From: a bacterium
Lineage (GTDB): Bacteria > Myxococcota > UBA727 > JAUIJE01
DNA length: 64,000 bases
Direction of reading: 5' to 3'
Assembly: GCA_030431455.1 (NCBI GenBank)
Contig: JAUIJE010000002.1
Coordinates: 129,294-193,293 of the forward strand
Every line of letters starts with the position of its first letter. Position 1 is the first letter of the stretch. Made by a program: the position numbers and the translations under genes. Below, piece after piece: positions 4,336-37,484 of this stretch. Under the pieces are notes generated by a model, which made no database searches, was not told where the DNA came from, and saw only the letters and a list, made by a program, of their open reading frames with translations.

Positions 4336-4408
4336 GTTTCAGACGGATTACGGATGTTTTCGTCGATGGACGCGGCAGGCTCCTTATCGTTGTTTTTGCG
4401 GAGGTCCC

Positions 4409-6136
4409 ATGACTGCCCTTTTGATCCGTCGCCTCGGTCTTTTTGTTCCCCTCGCGCTCGGGCTCGGCTGCCAGCCTGACGTGCACGAGGGGGTGATGGG
4501 CCAGCTCGGGCTCGAACACCCCGCGGCGGAGGCGCACGGCCTGGAGGTCTGTCCCGACGGCGAGACGTTGTTCGGCATCGACGTGTCCAAGTGGCAAGGC
4601 GACATCAACTGGGCCGCGGTCGCGGGCGACGGGGTCAAGTACGCCCAGATTCGGGTGTCGGACGGGCTCGCGGCCGAGGACCCGAAGTTTCAGCAGAACT
4701 GGGCCGGGGCCAAAGCCAACGGGGTGACCCGCGGGGTGTACCAGTTCTTCCGGTCCAACCAGGACCCCATCGCCCAGGCCGAGCACATGCTCGCGATCAT
4801 GGGCCCCCTCGAGCCCGGTGACCTGCCCCCGATGATCGACGTCGAGAGCACCGACGGACAGACCCCGGCCACCATCGCCACCAAGGTGGGCCAATGGATC
4901 GACCACGTCGAGGCGGTGCTCGGGGTGCAGCCGATCATCTACTCGGGCAAGTACTTCTGGCAGGACAACGTGCAGACCGAAGAGTTCGCCGGCTATCCCC
5001 TGTGGCACGCCCAGTACCCCCTGCAGAGCACGCCGGGCAACGACGACTGGATCGGCCGCTGTCCCAACATCGCCAACCAGTGGACCCAGTGGGCGTTCTG
5101 GCAATACGCCAGCACCGGGGCGGTGGCGGGCATCAACGGCAACGTCGACGTCAACCGCTTCAACGGCAATGCAGCGGCATTGGCCAACCTCACGGTGGGC
5201 GACCCGGTGTGTGGCGATGGCCTGTGCCACTTCAGCGAACAGGACGGGGTCTGCCCCGCGGACTGCCCGGTGTGCGAACCGGTGCCGGCGGCGGGCAAGA
5301 CCATCGAGGAAGATGACCTGTGTTTCTTCGGGGGCGGCAACCCCGTGTTCATTCGCGAGGTCGAAGACGCCGGCCACGGCGGAGCGATGAAGTGGACCGC
5401 GGTGTGGGTCAACGACACGCCGGCCAACTACGCGGAGTGGACGTTGATGTTCGACGAGGCGGGGCAATACGAGGTGGAGGTCTACACCGACACCGCCTAC
5501 GCCCAGTGGACGGGGGCGCCGTACCAAATCCAGCATGCAGATTCATTGGACACGGTGACGATCAACCAGACCGCCACCAGCGGTTGGCAGAGCCTGGGCA
5601 CGTTTGATTTCGCCGCCGGGGGCGAGCAATGGATCCTGCTCGGTGACAACACCCAGAACGCGGCCGAAGACGACCAACAAATCGCGTGGGACGCGGTGCG
5701 GCTCACCCGCGTGGACCTGCCGGGCGACGGCGACGGCGACGGCGATGGGGATGGGGATGGCGACGGCGATGGCGATGGCGATGGCGATGGCGACGGCGAC
5801 GGCGACGGCGATGGAGACGGCGACGGCGACGGCGATGGCGACGGCGACTGCCCGGCCGGCACCGTGGGGTGCGCCTGCGGCGAAGGCTGTGGCGAGGACT
5901 TGCTCTGCTTCAATGGCATTTGCACCGAGTTGAGCAGCGGCGACGGGGATGGCGACGGAGACGGAGATGGCGATGGGGATGGAGATGGAGATGGAGATGG
6001 AGATGGGGATGGCGACGGGGACGGAGACGACACCGAGCCGATGGCGTGTCGCTGCGTCGACGCCGGGGGCAGCCTGGTGCCGGGGCCGTTTTTGTGGGGG
6101 CTTTTGGTGTTCGTGACCCGCCGCCGCCGGCGCTGA
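4409..6136 (+). CDS. Glycoside hydrolase family 25 lysozyme (muramidase) lipoprotein with a C-terminal domain, two poly(Asp-Gly) tracts, a Cys-rich segment and a MYXO-CTERM-like sorting tail.
   Basis: ATG at 4409 is preceded by GGAGG and opens MTALLIRRLGLFVPLALGLGCQ, a lipobox. The GH25 hallmark FGIDVSKWQGDINW and the DVES motif are present. The C-terminus reads ...ACRCVDAGGSLVPGPFLWGLLVFVTRRRRR, a Cys motif plus hydrophobic stretch plus Arg-rich tail characteristic of MYXO-CTERM. Confidence 0.8.
   Translation: MTALLIRRLGLFVPLALGLGCQPDVHEGVMGQLGLEHPAAEAHGLEVCPDGETLFGIDVSKWQGDINWAAVAGDGVKYAQIRVSDGLAAEDPKFQQNWAGAKANGVTRGVYQFFRSNQDPIAQAEHMLAIMGPLEPGDLPPMIDVESTDGQTPATIATKVGQWIDHVEAVLGVQPIIYSGKYFWQDNVQTEEFAGYPLWHAQYPLQSTPGNDDWIGRCPNIANQWTQWAFWQYASTGAVAGINGNVDVNRFNGNAAALANLTVGDPVCGDGLCHFSEQDGVCPADCPVCEPVPAAGKTIEEDDLCFFGGGNPVFIREVEDAGHGGAMKWTAVWVNDTPANYAEWTLMFDEAGQYEVEVYTDTAYAQWTGAPYQIQHADSLDTVTINQTATSGWQSLGTFDFAAGGEQWILLGDNTQNAAEDDQQIAWDAVRLTRVDLPGDGDGDGDGDGDGDGDGDGDGDGDGDGDGDGDGDGDGDGDGDCPAGTVGCACGEGCGEDLLCFNGICTELSSGDGDGDGDGDGDGDGDGDGDGDGDGDGDGDDTEPMACRCVDAGGSLVPGPFLWGLLVFVTRRRRR
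5721..5848. repeat. (GACGGC)n microsatellite encoding a poly(Asp-Gly) linker. A second tract lies at 5939-6038.
   Basis: Direct hexanucleotide repeats visible in the sequence, translating to DGDGDG... inside the GH25 protein. Confidence 0.9.
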
Positions 6137-6221
6137 CCGCACCGGCCACCCGCACAAAAAGAAGACGCCGGCCCGCGCACCATGGCGCGGACCGGCGTCG
6201 TTGCGTTTTTGTCGGCGAGAC

Positions 6222-22273: not shown

Positions 22274-25200
22274 TCAGTTGGTGATGGTCACGATGAGCTC
22301 GTAGGGGGCTTCATCCGCGAGGGACGCGCCCTGCACCCGGATGAAGTAGTCCCCGGCGGAGCCGGCCACGTGTTGCACCACTTCGTTGTCGTTGGTGCTG
22401 GTCCCGCTTTGCACCACCGACCCCCCCGGGTCGAGGATGTCCACGTCGAGGTTGCCCACCGCGTGGCTGAACAGCACGTCCGCGCGCAACGTCTCGCCCG
22501 CCCCCACGCTCACCGTGAACAGGTCGGGGTCGCCGCCGCACAGCTGCAACTCTGGATAGCTGCCAGGCGCCACCGGGTAGGCCCCCGCGGGGGTGTCGTT
22601 GGGCTCGGTCAAGTCGTCCAGGCACAGGCCCACGCACTCGTCGTCGGGGGTGTCCGAACAGTTCTGCGAGATGCCGTCGCCGCACACCTCCCGGGCGCCG
22701 GGGCGCACGGTGGAGTCGGTGTCGTCGCAGTCACCGTCGCAGGAGGTGACCTTGTCCCCGTCGAGGTCGAGGCAGCCGCCTTCGGCCCGGACCTCGAGCT
22801 CGTAGGTGCTGGTCGGTCCCGCGCTCTCGCCGGTGGCGAAGGCCGCGACCCGGACCGCGTACACCCCGGGGTTGTCGAAGGTGTACAGAATGTAGCTGTC
22901 GGTGGTGGACAGGCCCGTCTGGGGGTCGATGTTGTTGTTGTTGGTCACCAGCTGCACCCCGCTTTCGTTGTACAGGGTGAGCAGCGAGTCGAGGGGGGAG
23001 CCGTCGTCGCGCGCGTCGATGTCGAACGCGAGCTGGGTCCCGGGCACGGTGACCTCGACGCAGTACCAGTCGTGGTCGGCCGCGGCCTGGATCACCCCGC
23101 CGCGCTCGCCCGGCCACGCCACCAGCTCGCACGCGGCCTGGGGCTGGTTGACCTCGGTCTCGGCCACCGCCGGGCAGCCGTCGTCGACGTAGCCGTTGCA
23201 GTTGTTGTCCTTGCCGTCGCCGCACACCTCGGGGGCCCCGGCGTAGACGGTGCCGTCGGCGTCGTTGCAGTCCCCTTGGGCCGGGGTCTGCAGGTCGCTG
23301 TCCCCGTCGTCGTCGCACATGTCGTCGACGATGTCGTTGCAGTCGTTGTCCACCCGGTCGCAGGCTTCGAGGGGCAGAGGCCCGCACAGGCCGCAGGCGT
23401 TGGACACCCCGTCGTCGACCTCGCCGTTGCAGTCGTTGTCCGCCCCGTCACAGATCTCGGGGCCGGTGGGCCCACACTCGCCGCAGGCGTTGAGCGCCCC
23501 GTCGTCGACCAGGCCGTTGCAGTTGTTGTCGAGACCGTCACAGATTTCTTCCGGCTCGGGGGCGCAGGCCCCGCAGCTGTTCTTGACGTACTCGTCGACA
23601 AAGCCGTCGCAGTTGTTGTCCACCCCGTCACACACCTCGGGGGCCCCCGGGTAGACGTCGTCGCGGCTGTCGTCGCAGTCCCCGTCGTTGGGGGTCACGC
23701 CGTCGGTGTCGAGGTCGGTGTCGCAGTCGGTGTCCACCACGTCGTCACAGTCGTTGTCGATGTTGTCGCCGCACAGCTCCACCGGGGGGTAGCCGCAACC
23801 GCCGCAGCTGTTCTTGACCCCTTCGTCCACATCACCGTCGCAGTCATTGTCGAACCCGTCGCAGATCTCGTTGGCCGCGGGGTTGCGGGTGGGGTCGTTG
23901 TCGTCGCAGTCCCCGTCGAGGCCGCCGTATCCGTCCCCGTCGAAGTCCCCGATGCAGGTCCCGGGGTCGCTCACCCCGTCGCAGTTGTTGTCTTTGTTGT
24001 CGCAGGTCTCGGCCCGGCCGAAGTGCACCTCGGGGTCGTCGTCTTCACAGTCGCCTTCGCAGGTGCTGACCCCGTCGAGGTCGTTGTCCTCGCACACCGG
24101 GTAAAAGAGCGCCTTGGCCTTGAGCACGTAGGTGAGCCGAGAGCCGCCGGCGAGGGTGGACTCGTCGCTGACCTCGATGGCGTAGATGCCGGGCCGGGCA
24201 AAGGTGAACGACAGGTAGCTGTCCGAGTCCTCTTCAAAGTAGCTGGTCTCGGGATCGATGCCGTCGTTGTTGGTGGTGATCACGTCCCCCGGGGTCTCGA
24301 GCAGCTTGAGCCGGGAGTTGAGCAGCGAGTCGTAGGGCGGCTCCTGGGCGTCGATGTCAAACTCGATTTCGGCATTTCCAGGAACGAAGAAACAATAGAC
24401 GTCCTTGTCCTTTTTGGGGTCGATGACCCCGTCCACGGTGAACGGCAGGGTCAAGAGCGGACAGTTGCTCATGTCGTCGTTGGGCTCGGCCTCGGACTTG
24501 ATGAGCTCGGGACACTCCTCGTCCACTTCCCCGTCGCAGTTGTTGTCGTAGCCGTCGCAGGTCTCGGTCTGGCCGGGGAACACCTGGTTGTCGGCGTCGT
24601 TGCAGTCCCCGTCACAGGGGGTGAGACCGTCGCCGTCCCCGTCTTCACAGATGAGCAGCTCCAGGGCGCGGATGTGCAGCTCGTAGGTGTACTCGGGCCC
24701 GCCGTCGTCGGCGTAGAAGTGATAGGTGTCGAGCCGCACGGTGGTGGGCTCGTCGAAGCTGTAGCTCAAGAACGGGTCCGACCCGTCGCTGTAGTCGTTG
24801 TACCCGCCGGGCAGCGCTTCACCGTCCGAGCCGAACAGGCTGAGCACCCCGTCGGTGGGGGCGCCCAAGATCGCCGAGTCGATGTCGAACTCGAGCACCG
24901 TGCCCGCGGGGGCGTGAAAGCAGTAGCTGTCGATGTCCCCCGCGGGGGTGTAGGCCCCCACGACCACGATTTCGTCGTCCAGGGTCGGGGGCAGGACTAT
25001 GTCTTGGCAGTTGGCTTGGCCGCCGTTGGGCTCGACCTCGGCGACCTGGCCCCCCACGCAGCCTTCGTCGACGGCGCCGTCACAGTCGTTGTCGAGCAGG
25101 TCGCAGATCTCCACCGGCACCGGGCCGCACTCGCCGCACTGGTTGCGCACCCCTTCGTCCACCTGCCCGTCGCAGTTGTCGTCGATGTCGTTGCAGGCTT

Positions 25201-25498
25201 CGGGCTCACCGGGGTTGCGGTCGGGGTCGTTGTCGTCGCAGTCCACCGCCGCGTCGTACCCGTCGTTGTCGAGGTCGTTGTCGATGATGGTGCAGTTGCC
25301 GAGCTCACAACGGTAGCCGAAGGGGCAATCGAGGTCGCCCTCGCAGGCGAACTCATCGACGTCCTCGCCCACCTGAAAGGTGTTGCCCCCCGCGTCGGGG
25401 GTCACGCCGGAGCCCGTGCTCCCGGGACAGCCCGAGAGCACCGAGAGCGACAAAACGAACAGAGAAAAGACGAGGGGGGAAGAAGTGTTCAAACGCAT
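22274..25498 (-). CDS. Giant lipoprotein with tandem 'putative metal-binding' (MopE-like DxDxDG...CDDxD...C.DG.DNDCDG..DE) repeats and PPC-like domains.
   Basis: Lipobox MRLNTSSPLVFSLFVLSLSVLSGC. There are at least 9 copies of the Asp/Cys-rich approximately 35 aa motif, and EPNGGQANCQ / EPNDDMSNCP / EPNDTPAGAY modules. The start at 25498 shares TGATG with the upstream stop; the alternative ATG at 25513 adds MLGAV. Confidence 0.7.
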   Translation of the reverse strand: MRLNTSSPLVFSLFVLSLSVLSGCPGSTGSGVTPDAGGNTFQVGEDVDEFACEGDLDCPFGYRCELGNCTIIDNDLDNDGYDAAVDCDDNDPDRNPGEPEACNDIDDNCDGQVDEGVRNQCGECGPVPVEICDLLDNDCDGAVDEGCVGGQVAEVEPNGGQANCQDIVLPPTLDDEIVVVGAYTPAGDIDSYCFHAPAGTVLEFDIDSAILGAPTDGVLSLFGSDGEALPGGYNDYSDGSDPFLSYSFDEPTTVRLDTYHFYADDGGPEYTYELHIRALELLICEDGDGDGLTPCDGDCNDADNQVFPGQTETCDGYDNNCDGEVDEECPELIKSEAEPNDDMSNCPLLTLPFTVDGVIDPKKDKDVYCFFVPGNAEIEFDIDAQEPPYDSLLNSRLKLLETPGDVITTNNDGIDPETSYFEEDSDSYLSFTFARPGIYAIEVSDESTLAGGSRLTYVLKAKALFYPVCEDNDLDGVSTCEGDCEDDDPEVHFGRAETCDNKDNNCDGVSDPGTCIGDFDGDGYGGLDGDCDDNDPTRNPAANEICDGFDNDCDGDVDEGVKNSCGGCGYPPVELCGDNIDNDCDDVVDTDCDTDLDTDGVTPNDGDCDDSRDDVYPGAPEVCDGVDNNCDGFVDEYVKNSCGACAPEPEEICDGLDNNCNGLVDDGALNACGECGPTGPEICDGADNDCNGEVDDGVSNACGLCGPLPLEACDRVDNDCNDIVDDMCDDDGDSDLQTPAQGDCNDADGTVYAGAPEVCGDGKDNNCNGYVDDGCPAVAETEVNQPQAACELVAWPGERGGVIQAAADHDWYCVEVTVPGTQLAFDIDARDDGSPLDSLLTLYNESGVQLVTNNNNIDPQTGLSTTDSYILYTFDNPGVYAVRVAAFATGESAGPTSTYELEVRAEGGCLDLDGDKVTSCDGDCDDTDSTVRPGAREVCGDGISQNCSDTPDDECVGLCLDDLTEPNDTPAGAYPVAPGSYPELQLCGGDPDLFTVSVGAGETLRADVLFSHAVGNLDVDILDPGGSVVQSGTSTNDNEVVQHVAGSAGDYFIRVQGASLADEAPYELIVTITN

Positions 25499-28110
25499 CA
25501 CGGCACCAAGCATTCGGCGGTGTAAGAAATCTCGACGGTGGCCCCCGCGTCGGGCACGGACGTTCCGTTGAAGGAGATGGAGTTGTTCTCCTCGTTGTAT
25601 TCCCAGCCGTTGAGCTCGTCGGCGGGGATGGGCACCCCGTTGACCAGCACCACGATGGTGGCCTCGTCGGGGATGCGGGTGAGGGTGAAGCGGGTCAGGG
25701 CGCTGAACGTGCCGATGCCGATCTCCTCCATCGTCGTCGACCAGTCCGGGGTGCAGATGGATTCGAACAACCCTTCGAGAGCCAACGAAATGTCGTAGTA
25801 ACGGTCCCCGCTGCTCGCGCTGTTGCCGTTGGCGTCGCAGCCCGCGGGGGGCTCGCCCGCGATGGCCGAGGCGATCACCGCTTGGCTGTCGTAGCCCTTG
25901 GCCGAGAGCAGCCCGTCGACGTAGTCGCTGACGTCGCCCTCGGAGAAGTCATCCTCGTCGGAGACGTAGATCACCGAGAGCAGGGCGTCGGGGCGGAGAA
26001 AGCCGCCGTTGGCGGTGGAGACCAGCGGTTCGGTCACCGCCAACACCGAGGCCGCGAGGCCCTTTTCGGTGGCGCTCCCGTCGGTGCCGACGTTGACCAT
26101 GGCCACGAAGTCGCCGATGGGATCGGCGCTGGCGTCGGGCCCGATGTTGGCGATGTAGGGGGCGACGAGTTTGCCCGCGTCGGCGTCGCTCACGTCGGTG
26201 GTGACCACCCCGATGTGGTAGTCGATGTTGAGCCCGACGGTGAAGTTGATGAACGAGCTGAAGTTCTGGGCGATGGACTGTTGCTCCTGCAGCATCGATC
26301 CGGAGTTGTCGATGACGAAGAGGATGTCCACCGCCGGGGTCTGCGACTGGGTGAAGACATCGACCACGTCGGCCGCGGACAGCGCCGCGGTGGTGCCGAA
26401 CACCGCGTGACGCTCCACCGGCTCTTTGGCCCCGGTGGAGAAGACCTCGAGGTGACCGCTGTGCTGGCCGGGGCCGGGGCCCGACAACATGCGCAGCGCG
26501 AGGGGGCGCGCTTCGCCCGAGGCCAAAAAGTCGCCGGGGGAAATCGGGGTCAGGAGCTCGAAGTTGGGGTCGGTGGCGGCGGAGAACGCGGTGCTGTCGA
26601 GACGCGCGGCCACCGGGCCCACGTTGGTGAGGGTGGCTTCGAAGGTGCGCGACACGCAGCCCTCGGTGACCGTGCCGAAGTACTGCACCCCCGGGGTGAG
26701 CACCAGGTCGGCGAAGTCGCCGAAGCCGAGCAGGTCGTGTTTTTGGGTGGTGCCGTCGTCGAAGGTGACGATCAGGTCCCCGGTGGAGGGGGCGGCGGCG
26801 ATGGGGGTGTAGGAGACGGTGGCGGTGGTGGTCTCGCCCGGCAACAATGTGCCTGCAGGCGCGCCGGTGATAAGGGAAAACTCAGGGGCGGCGTCGGGCG
26901 ACAGCGCGGTGCTGGCGATGTGGCAGTCGACCATGGAGGCGTTTTCGATGGTGACGGTGACCTCTTCGGTCAAGCCCACCCCGCGGGGGGGGAAGCTCAC
27001 CGGGCTCGGGTCAAACAACAGGCCGCAGGTCGGGGTCGGGTCGGCGAACGCGACGAGGTCGACCTCGACGTCGGGCTCCTCGGCGGAGGCGAGGCTCAAG
27101 GTGCCGAGCCGGTCGCCGGCGGCGGTGGGGGCGAAGGCCACGGTGATCGCGGTGCGCGCCCCCGGGGCGAGGGTGCCGGTCGAAGGCGCGGCGGTGATGC
27201 TGTAGTCGGTGTCGAGCGCGGTGATGGTGGCGCCGGTGAAGGTGCAGTCGATTTCGCCGTTGTTGACCACCTCCGCGTCGGCGGTGGTGGTCGAGAAGTC
27301 CACGCTGCCCCGCGGGAAGGACAGGGGGGCGGGGTCGAGGGCCAGGCGGCACCGTTCGGACGGGAGGGCTTCGCCGCCGAGGACCGCGGTGAACTCGAGC
27401 ACCCCCGCGGTCACCACCGAGAACATGCCCGCCCGGGTGCCGGGGCTTTGCGGGGCGAACGTGACCTCGACGCCCACGGTCTGGCCCGCGGCCACTTCGG
27501 TGAGGCTGTCGTCGGTGATCACAAAATCGGCGTGGCCCGCGGTGAGCCGAACCGCGTCGATGGCGCACGGCCCGTTGCCCTGGTTGGTGAGGTTGATGGT
27601 GCGCGGCGCTGAGGCATAGCCGACCTCGGTGTCGTCAAAGTCGACCGGGTCGGGGGCCACGAGCAAATCGCAGGTGGTCGGCGGCGTGCCGTTGCCGGTC
27701 AAGGGTGCGGTCTCGAGCGTCTGGTCGCTGTCGGGCACGTAAAAATCCATGTTCACCGCGTAGGCGTGGGCGTCGGTGGGCCGAAACCGCACCGGCAACA
27801 AAAACCGCCCGCCCGCCGCGAGCGGGGTCTCGACCTCGGTGGCCAGCGCCGCGAACGCCTCGGCGTCGGCCTCGGCCGCCCCCTCTTGCGCGGTGAAGAC
27901 CACGTCCAGCCCGTCGATGGGGGTGCTGCCGCAGTTGATGACCTGGACCGTGCGGATGGTGGTGCTGCGCACGGTGGTGTCGCCGAAGTCGGTCTCCGCC
28001 GGCTCGACGCAGAGGTCGTAGGTGGTGTTGAGCAGGTCTTCGTCCGGGCAGCCAGCGGTCAACAGCAGCGCGGCGGCGGCGAAGAGGGGACGGGGAGGAG
28101 TCCAGGCCAT
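25498..28110 (-). CDS. Lipoprotein with repeated Ig-like (ASH / choice-of-anchor-D-like) domains and a von Willebrand factor A domain.
   Basis: MAWTPPRPLFAAAALLLTAGCPDE is a lipobox. Several approximately 100 aa repeats each carry xxDFG/V..N.G. The MIDAS-type vWA motif DILFVIDNSGSM is present. It is the first gene of a 4-gene minus-strand operon. Confidence 0.65.
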   Translation of the reverse strand: MAWTPPRPLFAAAALLLTAGCPDEDLLNTTYDLCVEPAETDFGDTTVRSTTIRTVQVINCGSTPIDGLDVVFTAQEGAAEADAEAFAALATEVETPLAAGGRFLLPVRFRPTDAHAYAVNMDFYVPDSDQTLETAPLTGNGTPPTTCDLLVAPDPVDFDDTEVGYASAPRTINLTNQGNGPCAIDAVRLTAGHADFVITDDSLTEVAAGQTVGVEVTFAPQSPGTRAGMFSVVTAGVLEFTAVLGGEALPSERCRLALDPAPLSFPRGSVDFSTTTADAEVVNNGEIDCTFTGATITALDTDYSITAAPSTGTLAPGARTAITVAFAPTAAGDRLGTLSLASAEEPDVEVDLVAFADPTPTCGLLFDPSPVSFPPRGVGLTEEVTVTIENASMVDCHIASTALSPDAAPEFSLITGAPAGTLLPGETTTATVSYTPIAAAPSTGDLIVTFDDGTTQKHDLLGFGDFADLVLTPGVQYFGTVTEGCVSRTFEATLTNVGPVAARLDSTAFSAATDPNFELLTPISPGDFLASGEARPLALRMLSGPGPGQHSGHLEVFSTGAKEPVERHAVFGTTAALSAADVVDVFTQSQTPAVDILFVIDNSGSMLQEQQSIAQNFSSFINFTVGLNIDYHIGVVTTDVSDADAGKLVAPYIANIGPDASADPIGDFVAMVNVGTDGSATEKGLAASVLAVTEPLVSTANGGFLRPDALLSVIYVSDEDDFSEGDVSDYVDGLLSAKGYDSQAVIASAIAGEPPAGCDANGNSASSGDRYYDISLALEGLFESICTPDWSTTMEEIGIGTFSALTRFTLTRIPDEATIVVLVNGVPIPADELNGWEYNEENNSISFNGTSVPDAGATVEISYTAECLVP

Positions 28111-29186: not shown

Positions 29187-30263
29187 ATGTCCCCAGCGCC
29201 GATCGTTTTTGCCCCCGTGTCCGAGCTCATCGAAGAGCTCAAAGCCGGTCGCATGATCATCCTCGTCGACGACGAGGACCGTGAAAACGAAGGCGACTTT
29301 GTGGTCGCGGCGGAGCTGATCACCCCCGCCCAGGTCGTACACATGAACCGCGAGGCGAGCGGGATCATCACCACCCCCATGCCGAAGGATTGGCTCGCCC
29401 GCCTCCAGATTCCCGCCATGGTGCAGGACAACACGGAGAACATGCGCACCGCCTTCACCGTCACCGTCGACGCCAAACAGGGCATCAGCACCGGCAGCTC
29501 CGCCCACGACCGCGTCTACACCATGCGAAGGCTCGCCGATCCCGACGCCACCGCCGACGAGTTTGTGCGCCCCGGCCACATCAACCCGCTGATCGTGCGC
29601 GAAGGCGGCGTGCTCAAACGCGCCGGCCACACCGAAGCGAGCCATGACCTGCTGCAACGCGCCGGGCTCTCCCCCGTGGCCGTGCTCTGTGAAATCATGG
29701 GCGACGACGGCGAGATGCTCCGCCTGCCCCAGCTGCGCGCCCTCGCGGACAAGCTCTCGCTCAAGCTCGGCTCGATCGCGGACGTCATCCGCCACCGGCT
29801 CATGACCGAACAGCTCGTCGAGCGGGTCGAGACCCACCCCCTCGAGACGCGATTTGGGCCGCTGTCGGTGCACACCTTTCACAGCACCGTCGACGTCGGC
29901 CGCTACACCGCGTTTGTGCACGGCACCCCGTCCGCCGACGTGCCCACCCTCGTGCGCATGCACGCGGGCAGCCTGACCGGGGACTTGCTCGGGCTGCTCT
30001 CGGGCCAGACCAAAAGCACCGTCACGGCGGCGTTCGAACGGTTGACCCAAGAGCCCGCCGGGGTCCTGCTCTACATCGAACGCGACCCGCACACCGCCAT
30101 GGACGACCGCGATTACGGCATCGGGGCGCAGATCCTGCGCGACCTCGGCCTGCAAAAGCTGCGGCTGCTCACCGACCACCCCAAACGCCGCGCGGGCCTC
30201 GAGGGCTTCGGCCTCGAGGTCACCGAGCACGTGTCCTTGCTCGGTGACGCCTCACGGGATTGA
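29187..30263 (+). CDS. ribB: 3,4-dihydroxy-2-butanone-4-phosphate synthase (RibB) fused to a GTP-cyclohydrolase-II-like C-terminal domain that lacks the zinc-binding cysteines.
   Basis: RBS GGCAGGAGG. IILVDDEDRENEGDFVVAAE and GHTEAS are DHBP-synthase signatures. The C-terminal approximately 150 aa aligns in spirit to RibA but has no CxxGxxxxxxRCxC motif, so it is likely non-catalytic. Confidence 0.75.
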   Translation: MSPAPIVFAPVSELIEELKAGRMIILVDDEDRENEGDFVVAAELITPAQVVHMNREASGIITTPMPKDWLARLQIPAMVQDNTENMRTAFTVTVDAKQGISTGSSAHDRVYTMRRLADPDATADEFVRPGHINPLIVREGGVLKRAGHTEASHDLLQRAGLSPVAVLCEIMGDDGEMLRLPQLRALADKLSLKLGSIADVIRHRLMTEQLVERVETHPLETRFGPLSVHTFHSTVDVGRYTAFVHGTPSADVPTLVRMHAGSLTGDLLGLLSGQTKSTVTAAFERLTQEPAGVLLYIERDPHTAMDDRDYGIGAQILRDLGLQKLRLLTDHPKRRAGLEGFGLEVTEHVSLLGDASRD

Positions 30264-31198
30264 GCACGTCGGTGAACGATTCCGTCGGTTTTTCGGAACC
30301 CTCCCGTTCGGTCGCTGCGTCGACGGGCTGCAACACCCTTCAACTGGACGGCGTCCGCCTCCAAGCCAGACTCGCGGGCCAAGGTCCGCCGATCCTGCTG
30401 CTGCACGGTTATCCGGAGAGCCATCTGGCTTGGCGCCACATCATCGGTGAGCTCTCCCAGGAGAACCGCGTCGTTGCCCCCGACTGGTGCGGCTGGGGGG
30501 ACTCTGAACGACGACTCGATCTCGATCATACCTTCGCAGGTGAAGTGGCCCGACTCGCCCGCTTGATCAAGCTCCTTGGCCTCGAGAGGGCGACGGTGGT
30601 GGGACACGACTACGGCGGCCTCCTCGCCCTCGGGCTCACCATCCGGCACCCGGACCTCGTGGGTCGACTGGCCCTCTTGAACACCCGCGCCCACCGTACG
30701 TTCCCCCATCTGTTTTTCCTGGCCACGGCCCTGACCTGCTGGTTGGCGCGTACGCCGCTGCTCTGGCACCTGATTCGTGTGCTTCCTCTTCGGTTTTTTC
30801 ACGAGGTGGGCTTCCGCATGTTCATGGGCCGCCAACACCTCGAGCCGGCAGCGCTCGATCACTATGTGGGGTGGCTCTCCACAGATGTGGGCAAGAGGTG
30901 GTACGCGCGGTTCTTCGCGCAGTACCAGGTGATGCCCCATGAGGAACTCAAGAAGGGGCTCCACCACATCTGCGTGCCGACCGCGGTCATCTGGGGTGAT
31001 CGCGACGCCTGGGCGCCCCCAGCCGTGGCGCGCCAACTCGCCCAGAGAATCCCTGGCGCCGAGCTCACGTGGATTCGAGGCGGCCGCCATTTCATTCTCG
31101 AAGAACATCCGACCGATGTCGTGCGAGGCATCAAGGCCCTGCTCCGTCGTGACCCCGGTTTGGCGCCCCCCCCGATGCGTGACCTGACCCGCACCTGA
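30260..31198 (+). CDS. Alpha/beta-hydrolase of the epoxide hydrolase / haloalkane dehalogenase type (Asp nucleophile).
   Basis: LLLHGYPES (HGxP oxyanion motif) and VGHDYGG (the HDxG nucleophile elbow typical of epoxide hydrolases). The TTG start at 30260 overlaps the ribB stop; a later GTG start is possible. Confidence 0.65.
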   Translation: MSTSVNDSVGFSEPSRSVAASTGCNTLQLDGVRLQARLAGQGPPILLLHGYPESHLAWRHIIGELSQENRVVAPDWCGWGDSERRLDLDHTFAGEVARLARLIKLLGLERATVVGHDYGGLLALGLTIRHPDLVGRLALLNTRAHRTFPHLFFLATALTCWLARTPLLWHLIRVLPLRFFHEVGFRMFMGRQHLEPAALDHYVGWLSTDVGKRWYARFFAQYQVMPHEELKKGLHHICVPTAVIWGDRDAWAPPAVARQLAQRIPGAELTWIRGGRHFILEEHPTDVVRGIKALLRRDPGLAPPPMRDLTRT

Positions 31199-31258
31199 CC
31201 CGCGCCGAACCACGGGGCCGGTCTTGTCACGTCCGCTGTGGCATGCTGCGTTCGCGCC

Positions 31259-32620
31259 ATGGCCGACCTGCACGTGCTCATCGTCGATGACGACCGCGCC
31301 CTGCGCCTGGCGCTGGGCAAAGCGCTGCGCCGCAAGGGCTGCACCGTGTCCGAGGCCCAAGACGGTGAAGAGGCCGTCACCCCCCTGTCCGAGGGCGAGA
31401 CCGGCGGCGCGACCATCGACGTCTGTGTGCTCGACTTGAAAATGCCGCGCCTCGACGGGCTGGGCGTGCTGCGCAAGACCGTGGGCCGCCGGGTCCCGGT
31501 GGTGGTCCTGACCGGGCACGGCTCCATCGACGACGCGGTGGAGGCCATGCGCCTCGGGGCGAACAACTTCCTCCAAAAACCCGTCGACGCCGACGAGCTG
31601 TTGCCCGTGCTGCAACAAGCCGCGGGGGAGCCCGCGGCGGCGGACCGCATCCTCGGCGAGAGCGAGGCGATGGAGACCTTCCGCGAGCAGCTCGACCGGG
31701 CCGCGCAATCCGAAGAGCCCGTGCTGCTCCTCGGCGAGACCGGGACGGGCAAAGAGCTCGCCGCGCGGCGCTTGCACGAGATGAGCAAGAACCACGCGGG
31801 CCCGTTCATCGCGTTCAACGCCGCGTGCGTGCCCCGGGAGCTGTTCGAGAGCGAGCTGTTCGGTCACAAAAAGGGCGCGTTCACCGGGGCGAGCGAAAAA
31901 CGCGAGGGGCTGTTGGCCGAGGCGGGCGGGGGCACCCTGTTCATCGACGAGATCGGTGACCTCCCGGTCGACGCCCAGGCCAAGCTGCTGCGCGCCATCG
32001 AGGAGCGCCGGTTCCGGCCCGTGGGCAGCGACGTCGAGCGGCCGTTCCGCGCGCGCTTGTGCGCGGCCACCCACCAGGCTCTGCCCAAAATGGTCGAGGA
32101 GGGCACGTTCCGGGCGGACTTGTTCTACCGGCTCGGGGTCGTGCCCTTGCGCATCCCCCCGTTGCGGGAGCGCAGCGACGACATGCTGGTGATCGCCAAG
32201 TCCTGGCTGCAGCAACTCAGCCGCGACGGCCGTACACTGACATTGTCCCCCGAGGCCGAGGCCCGCATGCGGCGCCACCCCTTCCCCGGCAACGTGCGGG
32301 AGTTGATCAACCTGATGAAGCGGGCCGCGATCTTGTCCCCCGACGACGTGATCGACGACGACGAGATCGAGCGCCTGCTCCAAGAAAACCCCTTCACGGT
32401 CTGGGCCCAGAAGCACGCTCCAGAGACATTGGAGACGGGGGCCGACGGGGAGCCCCACATGGCCGCGGGCGAGCGCGTCACCCTCGAAGAGCTGGAGAAG
32501 GCCCACATCCGGCGCCTGCTCGACGAGGTGAACAACATCTCCGAGGTCGCGCGCATCGTCGGCATCGACCGGCGCACGCTCCAGCGCAAAATGGTGGCCT
32601 GGGGCTTCCGCGACGACTGA
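31259..32620 (+). CDS. Sigma-54-dependent transcriptional activator (NtrC family: REC + AAA+ + Fis-type HTH).
   Basis: HVLIVDDDRALR...LDLKMPRLDG receiver. Walker A GETGTGKE. GAFTGA is the sigma54 contact. ESELFGH. C-terminal HTH EVNNISEVARIVGIDRRTLQRKM. Confidence 0.85.
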   Translation: MADLHVLIVDDDRALRLALGKALRRKGCTVSEAQDGEEAVTPLSEGETGGATIDVCVLDLKMPRLDGLGVLRKTVGRRVPVVVLTGHGSIDDAVEAMRLGANNFLQKPVDADELLPVLQQAAGEPAAADRILGESEAMETFREQLDRAAQSEEPVLLLGETGTGKELAARRLHEMSKNHAGPFIAFNAACVPRELFESELFGHKKGAFTGASEKREGLLAEAGGGTLFIDEIGDLPVDAQAKLLRAIEERRFRPVGSDVERPFRARLCAATHQALPKMVEEGTFRADLFYRLGVVPLRIPPLRERSDDMLVIAKSWLQQLSRDGRTLTLSPEAEARMRRHPFPGNVRELINLMKRAAILSPDDVIDDDEIERLLQENPFTVWAQKHAPETLETGADGEPHMAAGERVTLEELEKAHIRRLLDEVNNISEVARIVGIDRRTLQRKMVAWGFRDD

Positions 32621-32634
32621 CGCCGGGGCCCGGC

Positions 32635-34608
32635 TCAGGCCGGCGTGGTCACCTGTTGCAGGGCGTCGATGAGCGCATCGGGGGTAAAGGGCTTGGCCAA
32701 AAACCGCGTCGGGGCGGTGGCCTCGTCGAGCTCGAGCACCCCCCGGGCGTAGCCGCTCATCAACACCGCCGGCAAATGAGGCTGCACGTCGCGCAGGGCC
32801 TCGATGGTGCGGGTCCCGTCGAGACCGGGCATGGTCAAGTCCACCAGGGCCACGTCGAACCGGTCACGCCGGGCCAGGCGCAACGCCTCGGTCCCGTCCG
32901 GCGCCTCCGTCACCTCCATGCCCACCCGCCGCAGGGCCCGGGCGATCACCCGGCGCATGCGCGCCTCGTCGTCGACGACGAGCACGCGGAACGTGGCCGG
33001 GGGGGGGCCGCCGGGATCGACGGCCAGACCGCGCGGGGGCCAGGACGCGGCGGGGCGCTCGGCGAGCGGAAACACGCACGTCACCTCCGTGCCTTCCCCC
33101 CGGTGGCTCTCGAGCAAGATGCCCCCGCCCAGCCCGCGCACAATGCCCAGGCACGCGGGCAGGCCCAAACCCCGGCCTTCGCTCTTGGTGGTGAAAAACG
33201 GCTCAAACACGTGGCGCCGCACCCGGGGCTCGATGCCCATCCCGTTGTCCGCGACGCGCACGTACGCCACCGGCCCGGCCCCAAGCCCCTCGTGGGCCAT
33301 GTAGGCCTCGAGGCCGCTCTCGTCGAGGGTCAACACCCCGGTCTCGACCCGGATGCCCCCCGCGTTGCCGCGCAATGCCTCTGCAGCGTTGGTCACAAGG
33401 TTGACCAACAGCTGGCGCATCTGGTTGGTGTCGGTCTTGACCCAAGGTTGGCCCGGGCCCGCGGTGATGAACAATGACCCCCGGTGTTTGACCGCCATGC
33501 CCAAAAGTGACTGCATGTCCCCGACCACATCGGTGAGGTCGGTGGTGCGCAGGGCGAACTGGCCTTGGCCGGCGTAGGCCAACAACTGCTGGCACAGGTG
33601 GGCCGCGTCCATGATGTCATCTTGGACCTCGACCAACGTCTCGGCCATCTCCTCGCCGCTCAGGGCGTCCCGCGCTGCATGTACATTGCCGAGCACCCGG
33701 GCAAAGATGTTGTTGAAGTCGTGCGCCAGCCCCCCGGCCAGCGCCCCCAGGCTCTCCAGCCGCGCCGAAGCGTGCAGCTTCTCTTCCAGCTGCTGCCGGC
33801 GCTGCTCCTCGGCCCGCAGCTCGGTGACATCGTGCAAGATCGCCAGCACCTCGGTGACCGCACCCTCGTCGAGGGCAAAGGGCACGAACGACCCGTCCCA
33901 ATGTCTATGCCTCACGCCCTCGAACGAGGCGTCCACCCGGGGCTCCCCCGCGAACACCCTGTCCAGCACGTCCTGGACCCGGGGCCGATCCGCCGCCGCC
34001 ACCATCATCGGAAACGGCGTGCGCCGCGCCTCCTCGTCGGTCCAGTCGGGGGGCAGGTAGTTGTAGTACTTGACCAACCCGTCCCGGCCGAAGGTGCCCA
34101 CGATCACCGGCAAGGTCTCGAGGATGACGGCAAGCTGCGCCCCGGCGCTCATGCCCAGCGGGTGGTCGTCGCTCTCGCCGCGGGTCATGCGTTCGCCGGC
34201 GGTGAGCAGCGCGGTGACCTCCAGCGACGTGACCCGCACCCCCACCGGCCCGTCCGGGCCTTTGACCGGCTCGTAGCGCACCCGGAACACGCGCTCTTTG
34301 TCGCGCAGCCACAGCCGCGCGTCGTGCGTCGCCGACTCCCCCGCGAGGGCCCGGTCGATGTGCTCGGCGATGGTGCCCTCGAGGTCGGGGAACAAGTCCA
34401 CCGCGCGTTGGCCCACCGTCTCGCGCGCCGGCAACTCGAGCGCCCGGACCGCCGCGTCGTTGAGGAACACGATGCGTCCCGCCACGTCGAGCCCGCCGAC
34501 CAACACATCGGGGAGTTGCAGGAGGGCCCGGAGCCACGCCGCGTCGTCCTGCAGGGTCGACGCGCGAGGCTCCAGCTGCGCACCCCCCTTGCGCGTCATG
34601 CTGCCCAC
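32635..34608 (-). CDS. Hybrid sensor histidine kinase (PAS domains, HisKA, HATPase_c, C-terminal REC).
   Basis: H-box LAGGLAHDFNNIF. N-box LVTNAAEAL. G-boxes DNGMGI and GRGLGL. C-terminal receiver VLVVDDEARMRR...DLTMPGLDG...AKPF. Confidence 0.8.
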   Translation of the reverse strand: MGSMTRKGGAQLEPRASTLQDDAAWLRALLQLPDVLVGGLDVAGRIVFLNDAAVRALELPARETVGQRAVDLFPDLEGTIAEHIDRALAGESATHDARLWLRDKERVFRVRYEPVKGPDGPVGVRVTSLEVTALLTAGERMTRGESDDHPLGMSAGAQLAVILETLPVIVGTFGRDGLVKYYNYLPPDWTDEEARRTPFPMMVAAADRPRVQDVLDRVFAGEPRVDASFEGVRHRHWDGSFVPFALDEGAVTEVLAILHDVTELRAEEQRRQQLEEKLHASARLESLGALAGGLAHDFNNIFARVLGNVHAARDALSGEEMAETLVEVQDDIMDAAHLCQQLLAYAGQGQFALRTTDLTDVVGDMQSLLGMAVKHRGSLFITAGPGQPWVKTDTNQMRQLLVNLVTNAAEALRGNAGGIRVETGVLTLDESGLEAYMAHEGLGAGPVAYVRVADNGMGIEPRVRRHVFEPFFTTKSEGRGLGLPACLGIVRGLGGGILLESHRGEGTEVTCVFPLAERPAASWPPRGLAVDPGGPPPATFRVLVVDDEARMRRVIARALRRVGMEVTEAPDGTEALRLARRDRFDVALVDLTMPGLDGTRTIEALRDVQPHLPAVLMSGYARGVLELDEATAPTRFLAKPFTPDALIDALQQVTTPA

Positions 34609-34696
34609 GCGCGTATGGTGAAGCTTCCAAACGGCTTTGTCGACCGCGAAGAGGCTTGACGACCGCCGAAAAGGCCGTCAGAAATGGTGCCGCAGT

Positions 34697-34773
34697 GGTG
34701 GCTGTAGCTCAGTTGGTAGAGCACTGGATTGTGATTCCGGGAGTCGCGGGTTCAAGCCCCGTCAGCCACCCCA
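34697..34773 (+). tRNA. tRNA-His (anticodon GTG) with an encoded G-1 and CCA.
   Basis: GGTGGCTGTAGCTCAGTTGGTAGAGCACTGGATTGTGATTCCGGGAGTCGCGGGTTCAAGCCCCGTCAGCCACCCCA is a near-identical architecture to E. coli tRNA-His, with a cloverleaf, a 7-nt anticodon loop TTGTGAT and the T-arm GGTTCAAGCCC. Confidence 0.85.
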
Positions 34774-34948
34774 AACAACGTCCCGCGTGAGCGGGACGTT
34801 TTTTGTGGGGGCTGACGGGGCGCAGCCCGTCCCTCCTCGAAGAGGAGGCCAGCCACACCCAAACAACGTCCCGCGTGAGCGGGACGTTTTTTGTGGGGGC
34901 TGACGGGGCGCAGCCCGTCCCTCCTCGAAGAGGAGGCCAGCCACACCC
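34773..34948. repeat. Perfect 88-bp tandem duplication (34773-34860 and 34861-34948) immediately 3' of tRNA-His. Each unit carries an intrinsic terminator and a tRNA-3'-end-like CCAGCCACACCCAAA motif.
   Basis: The two units are identical when read side by side. A degenerate third copy (CACAACCCAAACACGTCCCGCGGAAGCGGGC) lies at about 35192-35225. Confidence 0.9.
34777..34804 (+). terminator. Rho-independent terminator, GC stem AACGTCCCGC/GCGGGACGTT with loop GTGA then T6. A second identical copy lies at 34865-34892.
   Basis: Perfect 10-bp stem plus U-tract directly after the tRNA. Confidence 0.8.
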
Positions 34949-34953
34949 AAATG

Positions 34954-34982
34954 AAAGCTCCGCTTCGGCGGAGCTTTTTTTT
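34954..34982 (+). terminator. Third rho-independent terminator, AAAGCTCCGC-TTCG-GCGGAGCTTT followed by T8.
   Basis: Perfect 10-bp stem with a tetraloop and U-tract. Confidence 0.8.
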
Positions 34983-35221
34983 GTGGGGGCGCGCCGGCGG
35001 AGCCGGCGACAGCGAGGAGGAAGCGGGCCCGCGCTTCCTCGACCAAGGCAACCGTCGCGCTCTCCCGGGGCGCCCACCCGAAGCGCCCCAACGCGAACCC
35101 GCGCCGCCGACGAGCGCCACCGGCAAGCCCATCGTCCCCGAAGGGGACGCCCGGGCCCGCAGGAGCGCACGGACCCACAGGGGCCGCCGGACACAACCCA
35201 AACACGTCCCGCGGAAGCGGG

Positions 35222-35746
35222 CTACACCAACGAAAGCTGCTCAGGCTTTTTCGGCCGCGTCCCGAGCAGCTGCCGGGCGAGGCTCGCCTCCCGCTTGAAA
35301 AAGCCCTCGGTGTGGAACGACTCGTCGAGCCCGTACACGGTGAAGTCCAGGTGGTGACACAGCTCGTGCAGCAACGTGCGCACGAACGACCGGAACGCGA
35401 CCGGGCGTTGGTGCACCGCGGTGCGCATCCAGGCGCGGATCACCGCGCGCTGGCCCTCTTCGGCTTCGTACAGGCCGTGCAGCTCGGCGTACTCGTCGTG
35501 CGGGCGGCGCGCGAGCACGCGGACGGTGACGGGCGGGGCCGCGAGCTGTTGGGTCAGGACCCGCACCAGCCGATGGCTGGCCTTCTGGGTGGCCCGCACG
35601 CTGTCCTCGTCGAGCCCCGCGGCCAAGAGCGCCAGCCAGGGCGCGGCCGCGGCCGGGTCTGGCACGTCGACGCTTGTGATCTTGTCGCTGCGCCGCACGA
35701 TGCGGCGCTCGGCCGGGCGCAGCTTTTTGTAATAGGCGAAGGCCAC
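35222..35746 (-). CDS. Putative zinc metallopeptidase (HExxH; SprT/DUF45-like).
   Basis: The C-terminal 174 aa of a longer track ORF carries LLHELCHHLDFTVYGLDESFHTEGF. The N-terminal two-thirds of the track ORF is antisense to a better-looking plus-strand gene and was trimmed to the GTG at 35746. Start and family are both uncertain. Confidence 0.35.
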   Translation of the reverse strand: MAFAYYKKLRPAERRIVRRSDKITSVDVPDPAAAAPWLALLAAGLDEDSVRATQKASHRLVRVLTQQLAAPPVTVRVLARRPHDEYAELHGLYEAEEGQRAVIRAWMRTAVHQRPVAFRSFVRTLLHELCHHLDFTVYGLDESFHTEGFFKREASLARQLLGTRPKKPEQLSLV

Positions 35747-35857
35747 GCCTGGCTTTCGCACGCGGGGCGGCGCCTGCCAATGTGACCGCGCCGACACCGG
35801 GCCTGAATCCCGCCGGGCGTCGCCGTCGTCCGAGCCCGCACAAGCCGGGAGGAACCG

Positions 35858-36493
35858 ATGCGCGTGGTGTGGTGTGGACTGTTTTTGACCTGCACAGGGA
35901 TGTTCGGCGCGGCCCCGGCCGCGGCCGAGGCGGGACCGGCCTTGTCGCTGGACAACCTCGTGCAACTCGAGCGGGTCGAGACCGCGCGGCACACCTTGCG
36001 GCGCGCGCGCATCGAACGCATCCGGGAGGTCGCCCAGCTCGGCCAGAACGAAGCCCTGCAAAAGCGCGCCGCGCGCCTCGATGCGCTCGAGGACTTGCGC
36101 CACACCGCGCGCACCGGCGCGCTCGCCCAAAAACGCAAAGAGCTGAGCGCGGGCGCCACGGTCTACGAGACCGCGCGCGACGCCCGCGAACGGGACCGCC
36201 TCCGCGCCGACCGCGTGCGCCGCCGCGCCGTGGGCATGAACTACGACGACGGCGCGGGGGAGCTGGCCGCGATCGCGGCGGTCCCCGACGCGGACGCCCG
36301 GCCGACGACCGGCACCGCCAAAGCCCACAAACGACAAAAACAAAAGACCCGCGCGCAGCCGGGCAAAAGCACCGCGCGCAAAGAGCGGGCCGCGCGCCAA
36401 GAGCGGGCCGCCCGCGAAAAGCCCGCCCCCAAAAGCGACCGCACGTCGCGCGGCAAGACCCCGGCGAAAAAGCGCAGCCGGTCCCAGCGCTGA
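35858..36493 (+). CDS. Hypothetical secreted, highly basic, coiled-coil-like protein.
   Basis: RBS GGGAGG. Signal MRVVWCGLFLTCTGMFGAAPAAAEA. The rest is rich in R/E/A/K with heptad-like spacing. Confidence 0.4.
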   Translation: MRVVWCGLFLTCTGMFGAAPAAAEAGPALSLDNLVQLERVETARHTLRRARIERIREVAQLGQNEALQKRAARLDALEDLRHTARTGALAQKRKELSAGATVYETARDARERDRLRADRVRRRAVGMNYDDGAGELAAIAAVPDADARPTTGTAKAHKRQKQKTRAQPGKSTARKERAARQERAAREKPAPKSDRTSRGKTPAKKRSRSQR

Positions 36494-36509
36494 CGCCGCG
36501 ACGCCCCGG

Positions 36510-37484
36510 TCACAGCCCGGCGATGTACAGGGACAAACGCTGCAATGTCTCTGCATCAAAGAACGGGCCGCCCTGGGGCATCCGGTTGCCGATCCCCCCG
36601 ACGTCGGCCTGGGTGCCTTCGACCTTGCGGTAGAGATAGCTGTCCGCGGGCGAGCCCGGCTCGATGTAATCGAGCAACGAGCCGTTCGAGAGCACGTCGA
36701 TCACCGCGGTGTGGTCGTCGAGCGTGAGCCCGCCCGACAGGCCCCCGCCGATGTGACAGGGGGTGCAGTTGTTGTCCAACAAGGTCTGGACCTCGACCGC
36801 GGAAAACGCCTGACAGGCCAGATCCGCGGCGCAGTCCGGGTCGTCACAGTCGACGGCGTTGTCCCCATCGTTGTCCACCCCGTCGACACAGTCTTCGACC
36901 GGCCCCGCGTCCGGCCCGTCGATGACATCGGGCAAACCCGCGTCCAACCCCGCGTCGGGCAAATCGATCACATCGGGCAAACCCGCGTCGAGGCCCGCGT
37001 CGGGCAGGTCGATCACATCGGGCAAACCCGCATCGAGTCCGTTGACCACGTCGGGCAGACCCGCGTCCAACCCCGCGTCCGGGTCGCCATCGCCGTCGCC
37101 GTCGCCGTCCCCATCTCCGTCCCCGTCCCCGTCACCGTCGCCGTCACCGTCCCCATCCCCATCGCCATCTCCGTCCCCGTCGCCATCCCCATCGCCGTCC
37201 CCGTCCCCGTCTCCGTCCCCATCGCCGTCGCCGTCGCCATCTCCGTCACCGTCGCCGTCGCCGTCGCCGTCCCCATCTCCGTCCCCGTCCCCGTCGCCGT
37301 CACCGTCGCCGTCCCCATCTCCGTCACCGTCGCCGTCGCCAAACGACACGCATTGGCCATCCAGGTTGCACACTTCGCCCGCGGCGCAATCTTCGGAGGT
37401 GGCGCACGTGCCGCACCCCAGACTGGCCACCAGCCAGATCGCCAAAGCCAGTCCCCCCAACAACCGCAGCGCGCGAATGGTCAT
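36510..37484 (-). CDS. Lipoprotein with an approximately 80-unit poly(Asp-Gly) linker, DAGLPDVID repeats and a C-terminal c-type cytochrome-like (CxxCH) domain.
   Basis: Lipobox ...WLVASLGCGTC. About 250 nt of (GACGGN)n. C-terminal NNCTPCHIGGGLSGGLTL resembles the Planctomycete cytochrome-c (PSCyt1) domain. Confidence 0.6.
   Translation of the reverse strand: MTIRALRLLGGLALAIWLVASLGCGTCATSEDCAAGEVCNLDGQCVSFGDGDGDGDGDGDGDGDGDGDGDGDGDGDGDGDGDGDGDGDGDGDGDGDGDGDGDGDGDGDGDGDGDGDGDGDGDGDGDGDGDGDGDPDAGLDAGLPDVVNGLDAGLPDVIDLPDAGLDAGLPDVIDLPDAGLDAGLPDVIDGPDAGPVEDCVDGVDNDGDNAVDCDDPDCAADLACQAFSAVEVQTLLDNNCTPCHIGGGLSGGLTLDDHTAVIDVLSNGSLLDYIEPGSPADSYLYRKVEGTQADVGGIGNRMPQGGPFFDAETLQRLSLYIAGL
37084..37340. 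repeat. Long hexanucleotide microsatellite (GNCGTC/GACGGN)n encoding poly(Asp-Gly).
   Basis: Uninterrupted ccgtcgccgtcgccatc... run visible in the sequence. Confidence 0.9.

Follow-up and report, generated by a model that had tools for sequence, protein, structure and literature searches.

In Escherichia coli, stable-RNA genes can be followed by tRNA-linked repeats (TLRs), of which 22 are recorded at ten loci that hold one to five each (PMC8144298, in its excerpted text, citing Egan & Landy 1978 and Rudd 1999). According to the same excerpt, a tRNA or rRNA gene stands immediately upstream of each TLR, and the two share 18-19 identical bp at their 3' ends. In rrnA, rrnB and rrnD the order is 5S, rrn terminator T1, TLR (giving the rrA, rrB or rrF small RNA, sRNA) and rrn terminator T2; the TLR is transcribed when the first terminator is read through, and an RNase E cut at the repeated end has been proposed (PMC8144298, excerpt). 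Co-transcription and 3'-end processing are described there as shown for rrA/B/F and as proposed for the TLR class, which has been described almost solely in E. coli and its relatives and has a known function for the three rRNA-operon members only (PMC8144298, excerpt).

Here, a comparable array is described from a 64,000-nucleotide stretch, called the window below, of a Myxococcota-like high-GC bacterium (assembly GCA_030431455.1, contig JAUIJE010000002.1, positions 129,294 to 193,293 of the forward strand), in which a tRNA-His gene is followed by tandem 88-bp units. With a probability of roughly two in three, this is a lineage-specific array that resembles the E. coli TLRs, arose by local duplication of the tRNA-His trailer and serves mainly as a series of stacked terminators.

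Anatomy of the array downstream of tRNA-His

The tRNA-His gene and the array consist of the following features, in order:

34698-34773 (G-1 at 34697), plus strand: tRNA-His(GTG) gene (ARAGORN; Rfam RF00005, 65.7 bits; sequence)
34777..34804 (hairpin 34777-34800), plus strand: terminator T1, copy 1, with a 10-bp stem AACGTCCCGC/GCGGGACGTT, a GTGA (GNRA) loop and T6
34805..34849, plus strand: unit 1 body, what is left of a tRNA-His 3' half in inverted (reverse-complement) orientation (BLAST; alignment; exact 12-nt match; fold)
34850..34863, plus strand: unit 1 end, a direct copy of the tRNA 3' end with trailer, CAGCCAC[A]CCCAAA (sequence; fold)
34865..34892 (hairpin 34865-34888), plus strand: terminator T1, copy 2, identical to copy 1 (repeat and terminator scans)
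34893..34951, plus strand: body and end of unit 2, matching unit 1 at 100% identity (repeat comparison; Tandem Repeats Finder, TRF; Logan contig L067 breaks 30 nt 5' of 34952)
34953..34984 (hairpin 34953-34978), plus strand: terminator T3, with an 11-bp stem, a TTCG (UUCG) loop and T8
34985..35201, plus strand: unit 3, an older and longer paralogue of the unit (repeat comparison; BLAST; alignment)
35203..35250, plus strand: decayed terminator T1' (ACGTCCCGC-GGAA-GCGGG, lacking the T tract) and a T3 remnant (repeat comparison; alignment)

Both G-1 and the CCA are encoded in the tRNA-His gene, which is the only tRNA called by ARAGORN in the window, and RF00005 is the sole Rfam family above threshold in all 64 kb. 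The two 88-bp units (34770-34857 and 34858-34945) are 100% identical, and TRF reports a period of 88 with 2.2 copies, 99% matches and a score of 371; for a 35-mer of the unit, shuffles give an expectation of 0 chance matches. The TRF array starts at 34763, within tRNA-His, because the CAGCCAC-CCCAAA of the tRNA, which contains its last 11-13 nt, is itself the first copy of the unit end. An initial sequence-only reading of the stretch had noted the perfect pair after tRNA-His and had taken the duplication to be recent; the perfect identity of units 1 and 2 and the register that begins inside the tRNA bear this out and mark the duplication as local.

Three parts make up each unit: a terminator, the remnant of an inverted tRNA 3' half, and the final 13 nt of the tRNA with the AAA trailer in direct copy. 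The unit end (CAGCCACACCCAAA) is identical to the tRNA CAGCCAC-CCCAAA at 13/13 positions, with one inserted A, so the likeness to the tRNA 3' end that had been read as mimicry also reflects descent from it. For the inverted portion, the first 68 nt of the unit match the reverse complement of 34735-34803 (69 nt, 75%, E=3.8e-9; BLAST, minus strand), and the body that follows T1, once reverse-complemented, aligns collinearly with the 3' half of the tRNA, starting in the anticodon-stem region and continuing over the T arm and acceptor end to the trailer, at about 69% over 52 columns and with 12 exact bases (GCCCCGTCAGCC). In the body of unit 1, GGGGGCTGACGGGGC is complementary to GCCCCGTCAGCCACC; further 3' are an inverted T-arm-like hairpin (ACGGG-GCGCAG-CCCGT) and then a second hairpin (CCTCCTC-GAA-GAGGAGG). 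The unit end pairs with GGGGGCTG at the start of the body and thereby closes a Y-shaped fold that mimics an acceptor stem, a consequence of the complementarity of direct and inverted copies of one sequence.

Older copies follow downstream. Unit 3, whose overall length is about 250 bp, starts with GTGGGGGC, two hairpins and GCCCG..CTTCCTCGA, is 67% identical to the 88-bp unit over 73 nt, includes an inverted T-arm piece near 35095-35108, and ends in ...GGACACAACCCAAA / ACAACCCAAA, a degenerate copy of the tRNA 3' end, after which T1' follows. The degenerate fourth copy that had been placed near 35192 was recovered at 35179-35221, with 74% identity over 43 nt. The copies are thus of three ages: units 1 and 2 are 100% identical, unit 3 and T3 are about 65-80% identical to them, and T1'/T3' have decayed. 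None of this is coding sequence, because the 610-bp spacer (34610-35220) lacks the codon-position GC bias of the genes on both sides. For the same reason, open reading frames (ORFs) that cross the units were ruled out as genes.

The closest described relative in arrangement is the tyrT/tyrV locus of E. coli. In NC_000913, tyrT-tyrV is followed by 3.1 (3.14) copies of a 178-bp unit with 95% identity, under the annotated rttR and tpr. Each 178-bp unit (1286700-1287240) contains a direct copy of the 19 nt at the tRNA-Tyr 3' end, as well as an inverted 10-mer (ATCCTTCCCC, from the T-stem/acceptor 3' strand) and a direct T-arm 9-mer (AAGGTTCGA); the inverted copy is not mentioned in the excerpted text of PMC8144298. 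At both loci, then, a tandem array lies directly 3' of a tRNA gene, the unit ends in the tRNA 3' end and the same trailer, and every unit holds direct and inverted copies of the tRNA 3' end. In the window the array begins directly 3' of tRNA-His on the same strand when units are taken from 1 nt past the CCA, as the TLR definition has it, and the number of units (two perfect, one diverged and long, one decayed remnant) is within the one to five per locus seen for TLRs. However, the tyrT unit contains a small ORF (tpr) and an annotated sRNA and no intrinsic terminator, whereas the 88-bp unit is non-coding and has a strong intrinsic terminator in every copy, and the host is a distant high-GC lineage rather than an enterobacterium. 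Termination at tyrT is Rho-dependent. By the strict E. coli definition the array is not a TLR, because its repeat comprises 13 nt and an inserted base instead of 18-19 identical bp, with no similarity upstream of CAGCC; it is a TLR-like variant in a distant phylum, which is Myxococcota to judge from homologues of the neighbourhood.

Two further comparisons are instructive. As at the 3' ends of rrnA, rrnB and rrnD, a stable-RNA gene is followed by a first terminator, a short unit that repeats the 3' end of the gene, and a second terminator. In contrast to the window, the upstream gene there is 5S rRNA and the unit is single, and the E. coli units, which bind Hfq and CsrA, show conservation across the Enterobacterales, whereas neither conservation nor GGA-in-loop motifs were found for the window units. 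The array is also like the dual intrinsic terminators that follow highly transcribed stable-RNA genes, in that strong Rho-independent hairpins stand in series between convergent genes, but here the terminators are paralogues from duplication of a unit and not unrelated hairpins.

Stacked terminators and their homology

Three strong hairpins, at 34777-34800, 34865-34888 and 34953-34978, are each followed by 6-8 T, as the sequence-only reading had observed, and they account for 3 of roughly 8 strong terminators in the 64 kb. As predicted from sequence, both copies of T1 (10-bp stem, 7 GC pairs) and T3 have the GC-rich stem-loop and U tract of intrinsic terminators. That reading had called the third terminator a different one. 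The hairpin is present, but it is not unrelated: T3 is homologous to T1, with 7/10 stem pairs the same, 3/10 changed on both sides and 0 changed on one side only. The changed pairs are C-G to A-U, U-A to C-G and C-G to U-A, and the loop has gone from GUGA (GNRA) to UUCG. In the T1/T3 alignment 92% of cells pair, compared with 36-51% when the partner is slid.

T1 is at the same time the centre of a larger palindrome, in which 34756-34786 pairs with 34791-34821 (31-nt arms, 90% complementary); one arm is the tRNA 3' half and the other its inverted counterpart. T3 has kept an 11-bp perfect stem and a U8 tract, although unit 3 around it is down to about 67% identity. This retention indicates one of two processes, either selection for the hairpin or self-correction of the palindrome. 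The decayed T1' retains the same stem, and when read on the minus strand it is placed just past the stop codon of the convergent gene; it is followed by what is left of T3 (ACACCAAC and GAAAGC..GCTTTTT).

Proposed origin and competing explanations

The anatomy suggests a history in three steps. In the first, the tRNA 3' half would have been copied beyond T1 by an inverted duplication with the terminator hairpin at its centre, whether through a fold-back or template-switch event at the hairpin or through a convergent tRNA copy that later decayed. A segment beginning within the acceptor 3' strand (CAGCCAC...) and taking in both the terminator and the inverted copy would then have been duplicated repeatedly in tandem, so that every unit ends in the last 13 nt of the tRNA and the trailer. 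The perfect 88-bp pair would be the latest event, produced between direct repeats of 14 nt and longer by slippage or unequal crossing-over, with T1'/T3' as the oldest copies and T3 with unit 3 as intermediate ones.

Stacked termination between the tRNA gene and the convergent protein gene is the most likely main function. The three intact hairpins would act as successive Rho-independent terminators and keep a strongly expressed tRNA-His transcript from extending as antisense RNA into the HExxH gene, which is 450 bp off, and the partly symmetrical A/T flanks of the hairpins may stop the convergent transcript too. A secondary role as a processing-signal mimic is possible. Read-through transcripts would contain the Y-shaped unit, with a closing helix and a 3' tail that copy the tRNA acceptor end, and might be cut by the same 3'-processing nucleases, as proposed for E. 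coli TLRs. If such TLR-like processing occurs, discrete 60-90-nt species ending just 3' of CAGCCACACCCA would be expected.

The searches of other genomes bear on how widespread the arrangement is. The conserved flanks of the terminator were used as a pattern (CCCAAAN{18,30}TTTTTGTGGGGGC) against 185,579 representative genomes, among which the window genome is not included; 62 single hits in unrelated taxa were obtained, compared with about 57 expected under uniform base composition, and 0/6 loci checked adjoin a tRNA. A 35-mer of the tRNA-His 3' half gave 0 hits in metagenomes, and a 26-mer of the tRNA 3' end gave 92 tRNA-His loci from many taxa. In none of these 92 loci do the 600 bp downstream contain CAGCCAC.?CCCA in direct or GGCTGACGG in inverted orientation, and the arrangement is thus unusual and lineage-specific. 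The search for further unit copies that the sequence-only reading had suggested was made in the window and in public collections lacking this genome, and no other copy was found in the window or in the representative genomes scanned.

Several points count against an origin by trailer duplication with termination as the main role. The compensatory count (three pairs changed on both sides, none on one side) rests on 3 distinct hairpins and is reached by 24/500 shuffles, and self-correction of palindromes can occur by template switching with no selection. The copied tRNA 3' end comprises 13 nt and an inserted A, compared with 18-19 identical bp in E. coli. Additionally, a related genome with the same locus was searched for via the flanking genes and none was found, and therefore the duplication history and any selection rest on paralogues at one locus. 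The next-best homologues of the HExxH protein after its own copy are 55-64% identical, and 0/6 examined contigs adjoin tRNA-His; the upstream kinase has no close orthologue besides the copy in the same genome, others being at most 42% identical.

It is unlikely that the units are functional sRNA genes, the alternative that the sequence-only reading had offered, or tRNA-like RNAs, in which case T1 read-through would yield 88-nt RNAs (Y body and terminator) that are freed by tRNA 3' processing and act as regulators like RrA/B/F. TLR-derived sRNAs that arise from read-through of a first terminator provide a precedent (PMC8144298, excerpt). The acceptor-stem mimic and the identical trailer could serve as a processing signal, and the RttR sRNA is annotated inside the tyrT TLR. 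The unit with its terminator folds at -50 kcal/mol (z = -4.9), but when the Y-shaped body is taken alone its stability barely exceeds that of shuffles (z = -2.3), and the fold is an automatic by-product of direct and inverted copies. A weak Rfam likeness to rsmX (32 bits, compared with a gathering threshold of 56; E = 0.0015) and to istR is below threshold, no Rfam family reaches threshold, and there is no second tRNA-like hit at E <= 1. A strict sigma-70 scan of the locus, 34637-34675 included, found no promoter-like site. T1 is predicted to be strong, and read-through should thus be low. The GGA motifs are in a stem and not in loops, the unit 3 sequence has not been kept, and no conservation was seen in the other genomes, metagenomes or viruses searched.

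In a stronger version, which is also unlikely, the units would be the myxobacterial counterpart of the E. coli TLR sRNAs, and their acceptor-stem mimic would recruit tRNA 3'-processing nucleases that release a Y-shaped 88-nt RNA reporting tRNA-His transcription. If this were true, the combination of direct and inverted 3'-end copies would be a general functional signature of TLRs across distant phyla and would supply a mechanism for a long-unexplained class.

Two related candidates were rejected. A CsrA sponge of the rsmX type was set aside on the Rfam score and the stem position of the GGA motifs given above. A tRNA pseudogene was considered on either strand; the minus strand is collinear (acceptor, hairpin, T-arm-like, acceptor), but no tRNA model detects the unit, and an inverted partial duplication is simpler. 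ARAGORN and Rfam (E <= 1, both strands, 33500-36500) gave no second tRNA.

The sequence-only reading had favoured the footprint of an integrase at a tRNA attachment (att) site. As an explanation of the whole array, this would mean that tRNA-His had been entered at its T-stem/acceptor junction by at least one integrative element, which pushed the old 3' end downstream, and that almost all of the element DNA was then lost, leaving 74-bp remnants, one of which was later duplicated in tandem. In keeping with the displaced tRNA-gene fragments (attR/attL) of genomic islands and prophages that carry an integrase (PMC4383910; Williams 2002), direct repeats of the tRNA 3' end lie downstream in the orientation that Islander looks for, although they are 13-14 nt long, and they start exactly at the T-stem/acceptor junction, the crossover subsite known as 'J' (PMC4383910). 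Displaced fragments can also be damaged near the discriminator base (PMC4383910), which is where the window copy has its inserted A. Use of tRNA-His 3' halves as att sites elsewhere was found in the viral collection, where the tRNA 3' 26-mer matched two complete tRNA-His genes as well as a pair of partial att fragments, each about 50 nt long.

These two fragments (L073 67-92 and L074 5425-5450, from IMG/VR) are tRNA-His 3' halves of ~50 nt, from the anticodon loop to the CCA and without the 5' half. They are classical att-type pieces at prophage ends, from AT-rich hosts.

The integrase footprint is not supported in the window, however, and the att-scar account is quite improbable. Islander accepts candidates of 2-200 kb in which a tyrosine integrase gene lies between the tRNA gene and its displaced fragment (PMC4383910), whereas here the repeats are separated by 74 bp of non-coding sequence at an 88-bp period, and Pfam searches of about 47 ORFs across the 64-kb window found no integrase, recombinase, transposase or phage gene, in agreement with the earlier observation that no integrase is nearby. 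A search for the tRNA 3' end (23-mer, up to 3 mismatches) detected it nowhere else in the window. The 74-bp interval is itself derived from the tRNA, in inverted orientation, and the terminator it contains shares homology with T3, the 'host' terminator; integration does not generate an inverted tRNA 3' half. The repeated block takes in the host trailer and terminator and not the tRNA part alone, and the tRNA-His att fragments that were found span about 50 nt and not 13. No viral or plasmid sequence matches the unit: a unit-specific 17-mer had only chance-like matches within coding-type sequence in the viral collection, and BLAST of the whole locus against phages and plasmids returned nothing beyond tRNA matches. 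The perfect 88-bp tandem would require a separate duplication step in any case. If the att-scar account were true, the attP of the element would carry the tRNA-His 3' end, T1 and GTGGGGGCTGACGGGG.

It is very unlikely that the unit is a dispersed palindromic element, of the repetitive extragenic palindromic (REP)/REPIN or miniature inverted-repeat transposable element (MITE) kind, that expanded beside the tRNA. The unit is REPIN-like in being hairpin-rich, intergenic and about 90 bp long, and local tandem expansion of REPIN-like elements is known. However, no significant copy exists elsewhere in the 64 kb even at low stringency (best outside match E = 0.08, in coding sequence), the flank pattern occurs only at chance level among the representative genomes, and both unit ends are clearly derived from the adjacent tRNA.

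Finally, perfect short tandem duplications can come from mis-assembly or polishing errors, but a single unit wrongly doubled is highly implausible here, because the k=31 assembly of ERR3428548 breaks k-1 nt before the unit/T3 junction, which requires two continuations of the unit end. The contig concerned (Logan, ERR3428548) is an independent short-read contig, although the run may be the same data as the source of the genome assembly; it is identical to 34922-37112 of the window and begins exactly 30 nt (k-1) 5' of the unit 2/T3 junction, at a graph branch CCCAAA[C|T]. The unit end thus has two different continuations in the reads, and at least two tandem units are supported.

Genomic surroundings and implications

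The array is bounded by the following features:

34637..34675, plus strand: 19-bp tandem repeat, two copies, 5' of tRNA-His (TRF; sequence)
32635-34608, minus strand: hybrid histidine kinase, upstream (Pfam)
35222..35797 (stop codon 35222-35224), minus strand: convergent downstream HExxH hypothetical protein (homologues)

Each 19-bp copy contains a -35-like hexamer (TTGTCG and TTGACG), and 34637-34675 is probably the promoter region of a monocistronic tRNA-His unit, to judge from these hexamers; as noted above, the strict scan called no promoter there. The repeat may be a duplicated promoter or UP region, in which case local tandem duplications would be present at both ends of tRNA-His. A short-read contig with the kinase (L173, equal to window 29255-34733) stops inside the tRNA-His anticodon region, which suggests that identical tRNA-His k-mers occur elsewhere in the sample, from a second tRNA-His copy or from another organism.

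The HExxH gene lies outside the array. The protein of the window has no Pfam match, one homologue (P0098) carries PF08325, and from this the protein is possibly WLM-like. The mechanically called ORF of 445 aa (35222-36559, minus strand) is mostly spurious; the real gene is its C-terminal part of ~180-190 aa, with the motif HELCHH, and public copies of the protein have 179 and 191 aa (P0001 and P0121). Short tandem repeats at 36372-36415 and 36903-37000 (18 bp x2.4 and 45 bp x2.2) are in or near ORFs beyond this gene.

Other ORFs of the window include riboflavin synthesis genes, NtrC-type and other two-component proteins, a fatty-acid desaturase and hydroxylase, non-ribosomal peptide synthetase (NRPS)-like and KAS III enzymes, and MerR and TetR regulators. 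A large ORF (22274-25513, minus strand) has 10 MopE-type putative Cu-binding motifs and a PPC domain, and it adjoins an Ig-like-repeat (HYDIN/ASH) protein (25498-28110). The ORF at 4214-6136 (GH25 lysozyme and Golvesin_C) has in its C-terminal part a coding stretch of Asp-Gly repeats ((GAT/GAC GGN)n, 5940-6200) and ends in a Cys-containing hydrophobic tail, after which comes a bidirectional terminator with a 15-bp stem (about 6164-6200). Matches to TTTTTGTGGGGG at 6089 and 6149 were dismissed as chance, being in or beside the coding C-terminus and an unrelated terminator.

The locus is lineage-specific, and its physiological weight is probably small. For annotation, it means that short repeats of a tRNA 3' end beside the tRNA are not to be taken as att sites when there is no island or integrase. 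As a second, independent example in a distant high-GC lineage, the array suggests repeated origins of this architecture, which may come about when tRNA trailers undergo duplication centred on a hairpin and may persist through better termination or processing.

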